Shown: positions 6,391 through 7,214 of the stretch, in pieces
Layout of the letters: every line of letters begins with the position of its first letter
Position numbering within the stretch: the stretch's first letter is position 1
From: a virus
Taxonomy: Duplodnaviria > Heunggongvirae > Uroviricota > Caudoviricetes
IMG/VR virus record: IMGVR_UViG_2778261246_000002
Strand: one strand, 5' to 3'
DNA length: 21,360 nucleotides
Translations under genes and position numbers: made by a program
The notes under the pieces: model-generated
Databases searched by the model: none
The model's input: only the letters and a program-made list of their open reading frames with translations
Told to the model about the DNA's origin: nothing

Positions 6391-6774
6391 ATGCAGAATG
6401 ATTACAATGACCTTAAGCCAATTGCCGAAATGATGTACCCGAATCCAGCTGTAGAGGAATTAAAAGCTATCGCTGACAAAATGTGTTTAAGCGAGCGCCT
6501 TGTTGATATGAATCAGGTGATGGAAATTACAACCCTGAGTCGGCGTACACTGCTAAACCTTGAGGCTAGTGGAGAGTTCCCGGAGCGTGTGCAGGTTACG
6601 GAAGGGCGTAAGGCCTGGTATTTAAGTGAAGTGATCGACTGGATAAATAATATTCCTCGCGCTTCTGAATATTGCCGCGTACCTGTCCCAAAAAAGCCAG
6701 ATGCGGCGCTATGCCTCAAGATTGAGCGTGTACGCCGCAATGCACGGGATGGTCGCTATAAGCTGATTGGTTGA
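6391..6774 (+). CDS. AlpA/MerR-like winged-HTH DNA-binding protein (127 aa)
   Basis: MNQVMEITTLSRRTLLNLEASGEFPERVQVTEGRKAWYLSEVIDWIN fits the AlpA/excisionase wHTH pattern, a fold also used by Nu1-type small terminases. Same AAGGGGGA-type RBS as the D-like gene. Ends 20-25 nt before the cos-like segment. Confidence 0.55.
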   Translation: MQNDYNDLKPIAEMMYPNPAVEELKAIADKMCLSERLVDMNQVMEITTLSRRTLLNLEASGEFPERVQVTEGRKAWYLSEVIDWINNIPRASEYCRVPVPKKPDAALCLKIERVRRNARDGRYKLIG

Positions 6775-6794
6775 TGAAATTAGGGCCCGCTCTG

Positions 6795-7019
6795 GCTGGC
6801 GGGTCCTTTCCGGCGATCTGACAGGCTACGGGGCGTCAGGCGCGCAGTTTTTCTCTATTTATGGAAATTTTCCGGTTTAAGGCATTTCCGTTCTTCTTCG
6901 CCGTAACTTTATGTTTTTATTTAAAATACCCCCTGAAAAGAAAGGAAATGACAGGCGCTGAAAACGGGCATTTTGGCCTCTGTCGTTTCCTTTCTCTGTT
7001 TTTGTCCGTGGAATGAACA
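6795..7019 (+). promoter_or_regulatory. Lambda-type cos site (cosQ - cosN - cosB with R3/R2/R1 elements)
   Basis: 6799-6830 matches the lambda right end (GCGGGTCCTTTCCGGCGATCTGACAGGCTACG vs ACGGGTCCTTTCCGGTGATCCGACAGGTTACG). 6831 onward matches the lambda left end through the Nu1 start. The 12-mer at the cosN position is GGGCGTCAGGCG versus lambda GGGCGGCGACCT. R-like elements: CATTTCCGTTCTTC (~6883), inverted AAAGAAAGGAAATGACAGG (~6938), CTGTCGTTTCCTTTCTCTG (~6975). Confidence 0.7.
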
Positions 7020-7214
7020 ATGGAAGTCAACAAAGATCAGCTGGCTGACATTTTGGGCAAGAGTTGTGCAATACTTTTGTCAGACGTAAATATTTTTGAG
7101 GAACATTATTATATTTATGTAATTAGAGATATGTTTGATAGGACTAGAAATAAAGCAGACGCCTTAGTTATGTCAATTGCTGAAATAATAAAGGAAAATA
7201 GCAATGATAAATAG
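7020..7214 (+). pseudogene. Truncated Nu1-type small terminase gene: first ~13 codons fused to unrelated AT-rich sequence
   Basis: MEVNKDQLADILG matches the lambda Nu1 N-terminus MEVNKKQLADIFG. Similarity to lambda ends near 7062, after which the ORF runs through AT-rich DNA to a stop at 7212-7214. Confidence 0.6.

Follow-up and report, generated by a model that had tools for sequence, protein, structure and literature searches.

A lambda-type cos site with a variant cohesive end beside a second AlpA-family gene in the helper-embedded satellite Eco567.11capE

The window, by which we mean the whole stretch of 21,360 nucleotides that was analyzed, is the helper-embedded PICI (HE-PICI) Eco567.11capE of E. 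coli NRG857c, which has already been published (Tommasini et al. 2023, PMC10111431). The part of it in which a sequence-only reading had noticed an AlpA-like gene abutting a cos-like segment most probably forms the right end of this satellite's late module, with a cis-acting lambda-type cos site and a late AlpA-family gene that we call AlpA2. Both the element and its cos-like match are known, and the finding is real but largely explained. It does mean that a satellite packaging signal is recognizable from raw sequence. What we add here is a subsite-level map of the satellite cos, the view of its cohesive-end core as a free-floating allele, and that of E-D-AlpA2-cos as a conserved cassette with alternative specificity solutions.

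The DNA of the window is 99.9-100% identical to that of NRG857c. The satellite splits the capsid gene E of the lambda-like prophage 50icd and is co-oriented with this late gene of the helper. According to the RefSeq annotation of the locus (L001), the two halves of prophage gene E enclose integrase, AlpA, primase, SSB, E, D, AlpA2, cos, and cargo. We thus found what characterizes an HE-PICI, namely an int/AlpA/primase core of 10-20 kb, insertion into a helper late gene, and att repeats. Outside the cos site, the features are:

4988-6028, plus strand: satellite major capsid protein, homologous to lambda gpE (346 aa with the start codon of RefSeq; Pfam Phage_cap_E, E 2.4e-41)
6038-6379, plus strand: satellite head-decoration protein, lambda gpD homologue (113 aa; Pfam HDPD, E 4.4e-15; phrog_49 head decoration)
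6391-6774, plus strand: AlpA2, AlpA-family winged-helix protein of 127 aa (wHTH core at residues ~36-90; conserved N- and C-terminal extensions)
6782-6807, plus strand: GC-rich hairpin with a 10-bp stem at the operon end, its 3' arm overlapping cosQ
7217-7240, no strand assigned: terminator-like hairpin, bidirectional, that separates the Nu1 remnant from the cargo genes
7279-9043, minus strand: cargo, a two-gene defence-like cassette of HEPN (7279-7860) and DUF262/GmrSD_N (7832-9043) proteins, by Pfam
9149-9158, plus strand: attR core AACCCAAGCA, the 10-bp att core at the right border of the satellite
9151-9939, plus strand: C-terminal portion of helper capsid gene E, which the satellite interrupts, followed by helper tail genes (RefSeq annotation, ORF list)

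The attL copy of the 10-bp core lies beyond the window at L001 7682-7691, and the satellite unit is 11,077 bp. A P4-like satellite was rejected, given a lambda-type cos and late genes homologous to lambda E and D; likeness to P4 is found only in the primase and Icd-like genes. P4-like satellites are defined by a P2-type cos plus sid/delta/psu late genes. Joining the flanks at the att core rebuilds an E ORF of 341 aa, in agreement with PMC10111431, whose results give the same 10-bp att core, place Eco567.11capE at about codon 80 of the lambda-E cognate in prophage 50icd, and demonstrate its excision after mitomycin C. Those results had also recorded a 258-bp, 90%-identical cos-like block common to satellite and helper. 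The results of that paper, together with its passages using the terms cos, AlpA, or capsid, make no mention of a differing cohesive-end 12-mer, of cos subsite anatomy, or of a second AlpA paralogue in the late zone.

By alignment, positions 6800-7062 are a lambda-type cos site. This segment is identical to lambda at 235 of 264 aligned positions (89%), with one 1-nt deletion, and to the cos of the resident helper prophage at 236 of 264. BLAST against lambdoid phages gave an E value of ~1e-100. Homology begins at 6800 (CGGGTCCT), 25 nt past the AlpA2 stop codon, which is the upper end of the 20-25 nt claimed earlier, and reaches its right limit at Nu1 codons ~14-17 (about 7057-7062), beyond which lies the HEPN/DUF262 cassette. 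With satellite genes on its left and this cassette on its right, the segment does sit between non-lambda DNA on both sides, and the earlier descriptions of lambda-like cosQ and cosB flanks and of a packaging signal captured by a cos-type satellite were borne out, since the segment is the cos of Eco567.11capE. Colinearity with lambda extends over cosQ, the spacing, R3, I1, R2, R1, and the Nu1 ATG:

6801-6807, plus strand: cosQ heptamer GGGTCCT, -30 to -24 from the nick, at the same offset as in lambda by alignment
6831-6842, plus strand: predicted cosN cohesive-end 12-mer GGGCGTCAGGCG, with the flanking CG...CG kept (lambda alignment and allele census)
6880-6895, plus strand: cosB R3 (AGGCATTTCCGTTCTT), with lambda bp 55-63 intact and a G54A change
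6904-6916, no strand assigned: core of IHF site I1 by lambda alignment, at the position that we take I1 to hold within lambda cosB, with one change at a non-consensus position
6935-6950, minus strand: cosB R2, inverted, with one change from lambda (GGAAACG to GGAAATG)
6984-6999, plus strand: cosB R1, identical to lambda
7020-7214, plus strand: Nu1 (terS) remnant, with its ATG at the lambda position (+190) and the first ~14 codons lambda-like

The limits of R3 follow PMC9026076. We rejected the reading in which R3 and R2, each with a parallel G-to-A change, mark a new TerS specificity; the R3 variant is an ordinary polymorphism, since G54A is also found at 13 or more phage-context loci in which the Nu1 ORF is full-length. 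The ORF of the Nu1 remnant has 64 aa, is unrelated to Nu1 after its lambda-like start, and found no match in Pfam. It is probably not a functional TerS, and relatives have a full Nu1 where Eco567.11capE has this stub. From homology, the top strand is expected to be nicked at 6830/6831 and the bottom strand at 6842/6843.

Comparison of the cohesive ends confirmed that the 12-mer differs from lambda at roughly half its positions and that the lambda sequence given with it earlier was correct. The left end of lambda is GGGCGGCGACCT and that of the satellite is GGGCGTCAGGCG; 5 of the 12 positions differ (bp 6, 8, 9, 10, and 12), while bp 1-5, 7, and 11 and the flanking CG/CG are the same. Two more changes are present in the right flank of cosN (CGCGGG to CGCAGT). 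The term non-lambda is therefore apt for the difference itself but overstates its oddity, as the lambda-like group has this 12-mer among its natural alleles. It is the commonest cosN allele of the satellite family (51 of 93 IMG/VR loci), and its flank and cosB backgrounds in satellite loci are of at least three kinds. In phage context it occurs at L137, L206, and L224, on three different upstream sequences; Nu1 at these loci is 98-99% identical to that of the helper, and gpA is 99-100% identical over the available part, which is full length only in L206. The phage-context carriers of the exact 12-mer are all predicted prophages, and none of 82 matching GenBank records of deposited phages had such ends. 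Identical 641-aa gpA sequences occur with lambda-type and with GGGCGGAAGGCG cosN, and no gpA alignment column tracked the cosN allele. These findings speak for a free-floating allele at the cohesive-end core, one that satellites share with lambdoid prophages whose terminases are identical.

Lambda-like phages commonly vary at bp 7-12, and lambda TerL nicks such variants efficiently; C11G is silent (Feiss et al. 2015, PMC4669245). The satellite 12-mer looks like a natural cohesive-end variant that should still be cut by a lambda-type terminase. The lambda-like phages N15 and gifsy-1 likewise have 12-nt 5' ends with a conserved cosQ and left half and with variation mainly at bp 7-12, but N15 differs from lambda cosN at two positions and gifsy-1 at three, as against five, including bp 6, in the satellite (PMC4669245). 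Unlike this known polymorphism of lambda-like phages, the GGGCGTCAGGCG allele is mainly found in satellites.

The helper Nu1 is identical to lambda Nu1 (181/181 residues) and therefore should bind the satellite R sites directly, making an Rpp unnecessary. From the anatomy, homology, distribution, and linkage of these features we infer a course of cleavage and packaging in which the satellite would leave the helper capsid gene by excision and then replicate. The helper small terminase Nu1 would occupy R3, R2, and R1, IHF would bend the DNA at I1, and the large terminase gpA would nick cosN 12 nt apart to give GGGCGTCAGGCG overhangs, the variant 12-mer presumably being tolerated by a lambda-type TerL. 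Packaging would run rightwards to a second cut at a downstream cos, aided by cosQ and probably made after four 11.08-kb units (44.3 kb) if heads are full-size. Neither an Rpp nor a satellite TerS would be required, the Nu1 gene of the satellite being only a stub. Packaging in the manner of an Rpp-type PICI, which has an rpp gene downstream of cos and a non-phage cosB, was rejected because cosB is lambda-type and the ORF downstream of cos is the Nu1 stub; a PDB sequence search with AlpA2 and a profile comparison of AlpA2 with RppA homologues revealed no Rpp-like similarity.

The altered 12-mer, the R3/R2 changes, and the truncated Nu1 could alternatively be signs of a decaying relic, a cos that is eroding in a satellite no longer packaged. 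The shortening of Nu1 to a stub and the single change in each of R3 and R2 agree with such erosion, and the results of PMC10111431 state that plaque-forming particles were not recoverable from NRG857c, which counts against packaging of Eco567.11capE. However, all cos subsites and spacings are intact, GGGCGTCAGGCG is retained in dozens of satellites and also in prophages with intact terminase genes, and R3 G54A is shared with the phage-context loci mentioned above. Moreover, the homology block spans exactly the minimal functional unit, from cosQ to just beyond the Nu1 start, which argues for selection. We consider a decaying relic very unlikely and retain a lambda-type cos that would serve the satellite in cis.

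The closest layout is that of the Rpp-type PICI EcCICFT073 (Fillol-Salom 2018/2019; Murialdo & Feiss 2022), in which capsid, decoration, small gene, cos, and packaging-specificity gene follow one another as in Eco567.11capE. PICIs of this type also resemble it in their lambda-like cosQ and spacing and in their dependence on helper TerS and TerL. In specificity, EcCICFT073 is the converse, as it has kept the lambda cosN 12-mer, replaced cosB, and encodes RppA downstream, whereas Eco567.11capE has a lambda-type cosB, a differing cosN core, and a Nu1 stub without Rpp. The E-D-AlpA2-cos module occurs in 366 complete E. coli genomes, which is ~7% of them, and elsewhere among the Enterobacteriaceae. 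This cassette comes with at least four specificity solutions: lambda cosB alone, lambda cosB with Nu1, private cosB with private TerS, and Rpp. SaPIbov5 has another host and phage lineage than Eco567.11capE and an HNH-dependent cos system, and it is not helper-embedded. The cos-type SaPIs to which it belongs have the cos of the helper and a capsid-protein homologue and use the helper terminase, as cited in PMC6092414.

Should the surplus of helper-incompatible ends among embedded satellites be due to selection, it would amount to a novel form of cis insulation, of a parasite against the genome it inhabits, and would act with both cos sites on one replicon or both DNAs in one cell. Under such adaptive divergence, embedded satellites would keep cohesive ends unable to anneal to those of the helper, and non-complementary ends would block circularization of hybrids or of helper-satellite end-joined products. 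The geometry would allow for it: in the unexcised composite the satellite and helper cos sites are direct repeats, with ~46 kb, a packageable size, from satellite cos to helper cos, and helper cos to satellite cos is 15.1 kb within the 61-kb composite. A 2-nt end mismatch already cuts yield ~4-fold (PMC4669245). In an allele-blind IMG/VR sample, 35 embedded satellites had GGGCGTCAGGCG, 4 were lambda-type, and 2 had GGGCGGAAGGCG, and the non-embedded satellites comprised 6 lambda-type and 2 GGGCGTCAGGCG loci; stand-alone PICIs in complete genomes were lambda-type in 4/4. GGGCGTCAGGCG is kept on backgrounds of three cosB classes and of several cosQ-cosN spacer haplotypes. It is rare in phage context, with ~4 loci in the whole IMG/VR scan and 0/113 phage-context loci in the allele-blind scan, in line with its absence from the 82 GenBank records.

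Helper and satellite alleles differ in 11 of 14 one-contig pairs, two of the differing pairs being a GGGCGGAAGGCG helper with a lambda-type satellite. However, the other three pairs match, and 11/14 is about the mismatch rate predicted from independent marginal allele frequencies; there is therefore no pair-level signal, and we rejected mutual avoidance of helper and satellite 12-mers within pairs. The embedded satellites also form one integrase clade, so that a founder effect explains the enrichment of GGGCGTCAGGCG. Many loci are near-clonal, and killing hybrid genomes brings no clear fitness benefit to the satellite. On balance, adaptive divergence of the ends appears unlikely. We regard as distinctly unlikely the joint proposal that embedded satellites were selected for helper-incompatible GGGCGTCAGGCG ends as insulation or that AlpA2 is an unrecognized late-acting factor of the E-D-AlpA2-cos module.

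The AlpA-like assignment of the gene at 6391 held up. AlpA2 matched Pfam Phage_AlpA (PF05930) over residues 36-85 (E 7.6e-9; 35.8 bits, cut-off 21), PDB 8c3t, an 'AlpA family phage regulatory protein' (E 2e-9), and phrog_2790 (E 1e-49). It is 36% identical to the int-adjacent AlpA of the satellite (L001 9092-9316) and, judged by this similarity, is its paralogue. The late E-D-AlpA2 module opens with the capsid gene, the product of which is ~45% identical to helper E, and AlpA2 comes after E and D in every relative seen, a linkage that extends down to 50% identity across Enterobacteriaceae. A strong SD sequence lies 11 nt past the D stop, and AlpA2 would be co-transcribed with the satellite capsid and decoration genes. 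Across genera, 34 columns are invariant. PADLOC and NCBIfam gave no match to AlpA2, no close phage homologue was found, and a second, profile-based protein search yielded no full-length relatives outside the E-D context. An AlphaFold2 model from a 37-sequence alignment was too poor to use (mean pLDDT 51, pTM 0.24).

The role that we infer for AlpA2 with a little less than even confidence is that of a late-expressed transcription regulator; a recombination directionality factor is a less probable candidate, and a cos-specificity factor it probably is not. The excisionase or activator role suggested by the sequence-only reading stays plausible because AlpA2 is a paralogue of the satellite's AlpA. 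The other role suggested there, a packaging-redirecting factor with the Nu1 fold, is disfavoured. Such a factor would redirect packaging in the manner of Rpp by binding either the helper TerS or the satellite cos. This idea draws on the constant position of AlpA2 (throughout the E. coli relatives, 25 nt separate its end from cosQ and 56 nt separate its stop from cosN), on a winged-helix fold class as in Nu1 and Rpp, and on a conserved C-terminal tail without an assigned role. However, hhalign of AlpA2 against the TerS profile and against Rpp returned 0.2% probability each, a PDB search at E<=1 matched neither Rpp nor Nu1, and there was no Phage_Nu1 match in Pfam. The cosB beside a 100%-identical protein can be lambda-type, GGTGGTGG-type and accompanied by its own TerS, or of a third type. 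A packaging-specificity role is unlikely because the identical protein adjoins unrelated cosB types and lacks similarity to Nu1 and Rpp. AlpA2 also coexists with satellite TerS genes and, with another gene intervening, with an RppA homologue (67% identical). In Pluralibacter, one gene stands between AlpA2 and cos. With a lambda-type cosB and a helper TerS identical to that of lambda, an adaptor would be unnecessary in Eco567.11capE. In EcCICFT073, the slot before cos is filled by a small gene unrelated to AlpA2. Taken together, redirection of packaging by AlpA2 is highly improbable, and a late regulator remains our leading candidate.

The gene before cos1 in EcCICFT073, c1501, which is disrupted in published marker strains, was considered as an AlpA2 homologue and rejected because the two did not align; the published phenotypes of those strains are therefore not transferable to AlpA2. 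EcCIMP1 (PMC11773190) is a PICI with two AlpA-family genes, the second paralogue being at the far end of the island. This second AlpA is dispensable for excision and transfer of the island and can replace the helper excisionase (PMC11773190). It differs from AlpA2 in lying on the opposite strand, in resembling the helper Xis, and in being unlinked to capsid genes.

A scan of the whole window with Rfam found no family at threshold. The hairpin at 6782-6807 has an RNA fold of -20.9 kcal/mol (z -1.95), and 9 of 200 shuffles fold equally well; it is possibly a weak terminator. EcCICFT073 has a clear terminator at the matching position. In the cargo cassette, PADLOC matched NsnA (E 9e-60), PD-T4-2_A (E 1e-38), and PD-T4-2_B (E 2e-4).

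We compared the AlpA2-cos stretch with sequenced E. coli chromosomes and found that 6391-7100 (710 bp) is 99.9% identical to that of E. coli O83:H1 NRG857c, with 100% identity over 6038-6800. In this strain a lambdoid prophage (gene order Nu1, terminase A, W, portal, S49 protease, D, E, then FI to J) carries its major capsid gene E in two pieces with an 11-kb insert between them. The insert encodes, all in the same orientation, an integrase, a 75-aa AlpA, Icd-like and DUF4222 proteins, a D5-type primase, SSB, E-like and D-like proteins and a 127-aa wHTH protein (AlpA2), followed by a cos-like block; a HEPN/DUF262 pair comes after this block on the opposite strand. 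The window starts within the insert and extends into the helper tail genes (FI to J).

Features of the satellite, its cos region and the helper junction (window coordinates unless stated)
1-9158, satellite part
6391-6774, AlpA-family winged-helix ORF (PF05930, E 7.6e-9; PDB 8c3t, E 2e-9; phrog_2790, E 1e-49)
6801-6807, cosQ GGGTCCT
6831-6842, cosN GGGCGTCAGGCG
6880-6895, R3, with protein-contacted bp 55-63 intact and a G54A change
~6904-6916, presumably I1, placed by alignment on the lambda cosB layout
6935-6950, R2, one change vs lambda
6984-6999, R1, identical to lambda
7020, Nu1 ATG
7279-9043, opposite strand, two-gene HEPN and DUF262/GmrSD_N cargo, defence-like
9149-9158, att core AACCCAAGCA
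9151-21360, helper part
L001 (the NRG857c prophage-insert locus) 7447-7692, other half of helper E

The att core lies on both sides of an 11,077-bp unit, and a 341-aa E reappears when the flanks are joined there; the satellite's own E and D homologues are ~45% identical to those of the helper. The element is therefore Eco567.11capE, the founding helper-embedded PICI (HE-PICI), nested in prophage 50icd (PMC10111431). Its published description reports excision of the composite, its replication and then satellite excision for Eco567.11capE/50icd, and states that plaque-forming particles could not be recovered by its authors from NRG857c. We also noted a 26-nt motif (CATNTCTGTATTGCAG...GTATTGC) with one copy per satellite end (L001 7814-7839 and window 9047-9072), within attL/attR. 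A role as integrase arm-type site is possible, and the motif may be the 'doubled DNA motif' of Tommasini et al.

The sequence-only reading had placed a captured, lambda-like packaging signal of a cos-type satellite 20-25 nt past an AlpA-like wHTH gene, and each element of this description was borne out. The gene is the AlpA-family ORF listed, the homology begins at 6800, 25 nt past its stop codon, and the segment is the cos of the published satellite. The block matches lambda at 235/264 positions and the helper's own cos at 236/264, and is colinear with lambda in all subsites save for one 1-nt deletion. Lambda's left end is indeed GGGCGGCGACCT, as the sequence-only reading gave it, and GGGCGTCAGGCG differs from it at 5/12 positions (bp 6, 8, 9, 10 and 12), or about half, as claimed; the right flank of cosN changes from CGCGGG in lambda to CGCAGT in the window. 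Nu1 homology ends past ~14 codons, the rest of the 64-aa stub ORF being unrelated, and a bidirectional terminator lies 3' of it. The conserved block thus runs exactly from cosQ to just beyond the Nu1 start, which would be the minimal functional cos. At the sequence level, the site classifies as lambda-type, and helper Nu1 is identical to that of lambda (181/181). By our model, helper Nu1 and IHF would assemble on the satellite cosB, gpA would nick at 6830/6831 and 6842/6843, and concatemers of the excised satellite would be packaged, a lambda-size head being filled by four units (4 x 11,077 = 44.3 kb). An element with lambda R sites and a Nu1 stub would simply compete for the helper's terminase; relatives that retain a TerS or Rpp of their own can skew packaging in their favour. 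Whereas the Rpp system keeps cosN and replaces cosB, the window element does the converse and stands outside that system. The Rpp-type PICI EcCICFT073 uses phage-size heads, and no phenotype is known for its capsid genes (PMC6092414).

Next to lambda the 12-mer looks divergent. When we scanned IMG/VR anchored on cosQ with the 12-mer left free, mainly lambda-type sites were recovered; a scan for GGCG-type cores yielded 101 loci. Of these, 56 carry GGGCGGAAGGCG, ~50 of them in phage context with a downstream Nu1, full-length at most of these loci, that is 93-100% identical to lambda's; GGGCGGAAGGCG is also the cosN allele of phages PhiR46_1 and YDC107_1. GGGCGTCAGGCG accounts for 43 loci, mainly satellites. 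Three phage-context loci (L137, L206 and L224) also have the exact satellite 12-mer, behind three differing upstream sequences, so that the allele is shared with prophages of near-identical terminase: Nu1 is 98-99% and gpA 99-100% identical to the helper's over the part present (full length in L206 only), and the L206 portal is 99.6% identical. Among 61 full-length gpA proteins, identical ones went with both lambda-type and GGGCGGAAGGCG sites, and no column tracked the cosN allele. Since some GGGCGGAAGGCG phages have a gpA that matches the gpA of phages with lambda-type ends at every residue, the core acts as an allele that is exchanged freely. Published genetics point the same way: lambda-like phages commonly differ at bp 7-12 (N15 at 9 and 12, gifsy-1 at 8, 9 and 11), nicking of such sites by TerL-lambda is efficient, G2C is harmful and C11G silent, and terminases lack cosN specificity (PMC4669245). 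Four of the five window changes fall in this tolerant half, bp 6 alone lying in the left half, and more distant relatives carry other cores (GGGCGGCAGCGT in a Salmonella PICI, GGGATGTATACC in Buttiauxella). By these comparisons, the satellite 12-mer is not strange.

The allele is unevenly distributed. Four complete genomes contain an embedded capE satellite, and all four pair a lambda-type helper cos with a GGGCGTCAGGCG satellite cos; four stand-alone PICIs have a lambda-type cos. We assembled 14 helper/satellite pairs, including loci sharing one IMG/VR contig (L001, L236, L286, L287, L086/L161, L046/L194, L095/L166, L059/L207, L023/L268, L204/L257, L153, L100/L258, L256 and L285). Nine combine a lambda-type helper with a TCAGGCG (the satellite's allele) satellite, two a GGGCGGAAGGCG helper with a lambda-type satellite, and in three both are lambda-type; the 12-mers thus differ within 11. 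In an allele-blind sample, embedded satellites comprised 35 TCAGGCG, 4 lambda-type and 2 GAAGGCG (third allele) sites (35/41 GGGCGTCAGGCG), and clearly non-embedded ones 6 lambda-type and 2 TCAGGCG. GGGCGTCAGGCG was found in none of the 82 matching GenBank records of deposited phages and in phage context at ~4 IMG/VR loci. Together, these counts show a strong enrichment of GGGCGTCAGGCG among embedded satellites and its rarity among phages. A divergent end could be functional by keeping helper-satellite hybrid molecules from circularising. Before excision, the composite contains both cos sites as direct repeats 15.1 kb apart, and the rest, ~46 kb running from satellite cos to helper cos, has a size that lambda can package. 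Hybrid molecules with ends mismatched at 5/12 positions should fail to circularise; with 2 mismatched nt, yield is already ~4-fold lower (PMC4669245). However, mismatch in 11/14 pairs is what independent allele frequencies predict, and the embedded satellites all belong to one integrase clade. A founder effect is therefore the simplest reading of the enrichment; we consider selection for such a function unlikely.

To survey the family, we scanned IMG/VR allele-blind using the AlpA2-cosQ spacer as anchor. The 93 satellite loci comprised 51 GGGCGTCAGGCG, 36 lambda-type, 4 GGGCGGAAGGCG and 2 other cores, with cosN at a constant 56 nt past the AlpA2 stop. The same AlpA2 (95-100% identical) lies upstream of at least three distinct cosB/specificity solutions: lambda R sites accompanied by a Nu1 that is either full (72-73% identical to lambda) or, as in the window, shortened; a GGTGGTGGTGG-type cosB served by a TerS of the satellite's own, which is 35-38% identical to Nu1 and whose N-terminal DNA-binding part matches the Nu1 profile poorly; and a third cosB type in L286. 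Many relatives (L142, L166, L234, L235 and L236) have a GGTGGTGGTGGTTTTGTTGTT motif ~40-90 nt past cosN instead of lambda R sites, and relatives of this kind, L226 and L230 among the loci, encode their own TerS. Motif and TerS would be a private pair behind the E-D-AlpA2 module. In a Pluralibacter gergoviae PICI (L229 2392-2808; L228 8389-8781), AlpA2 is followed by a 131-aa product of unknown family and then by a 139-aa RppA homologue (67% identity), so that one element combines AlpA2 with Rpp. Among complete E. coli genomes, 366/5426 have the D-AlpA2 module, in both stand-alone and embedded PICIs.

AlpA2 is linked to E and D: full-length relatives, found in Enterobacteriaceae only, are preceded down to 50% identity by a 346-aa E and a 113-aa D in each context examined. 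Its N- and C-terminal extensions are kept across genera, with 34 invariant columns. Weaker matches are ordinary AlpA genes beside integrase, and deposited phages held no close homologue. The sequence-only reading had offered two roles. An excisionase or activator remains plausible, since AlpA2 and the satellite's int-adjacent AlpA share 36% identity across the wHTH core (E 4e-11); a packaging-redirecting factor is unlikely, the AlpA2 profile matching the TerS family and Rpp at 0.2% probability, and AlpA2 is probably not a determinant of cos specificity. A GC-rich 10-bp hairpin (-20.9 kcal/mol, z -1.95) at the gene end overlaps cosQ; there EcCICFT073 has a clear terminator, and at the AlpA2 position an unrelated 137-aa gene. 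The late capsid-modifying operon of satellite P4 also holds a transcription activator (delta). We conclude that AlpA2 belongs with the capsid module and is predicted to be a DNA-binding protein of the AlpA type that is expressed late. Late transcription regulation is its most likely role, albeit tentatively assigned; a recombination directionality factor is a less likely alternative. A PICI with a second AlpA paralogue has been described before in EcCIMP1, where the island can do without it and it can serve as an excisionase for the helper (PMC11773190).

The element, its nesting and the cos-like block are already published, and right-half cosN variation is textbook knowledge from the Feiss laboratory's system.

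The cos-attR slot carries variable cargo. In the window, the DUF262/GmrSD_N protein matches PADLOC NsnA (9e-60) and also PD-T4-2_A, and the HEPN protein is of the RiboL-PSP type; in relatives the place is taken by an Abi-family gene, DUF2971 or a 438-aa hypothetical protein. These differences suggest that the slot is a swappable cargo hotspot. One relative has a TIR-domain gene beside the integrase, outside the slot. Lastly, an GGTGAACAGTT-type repeat cluster at 3801-4027 (L001 13411-13637), just 3' of the primase gene and with 29-nt palindromic copies 95 nt apart, is probably the satellite replication origin.
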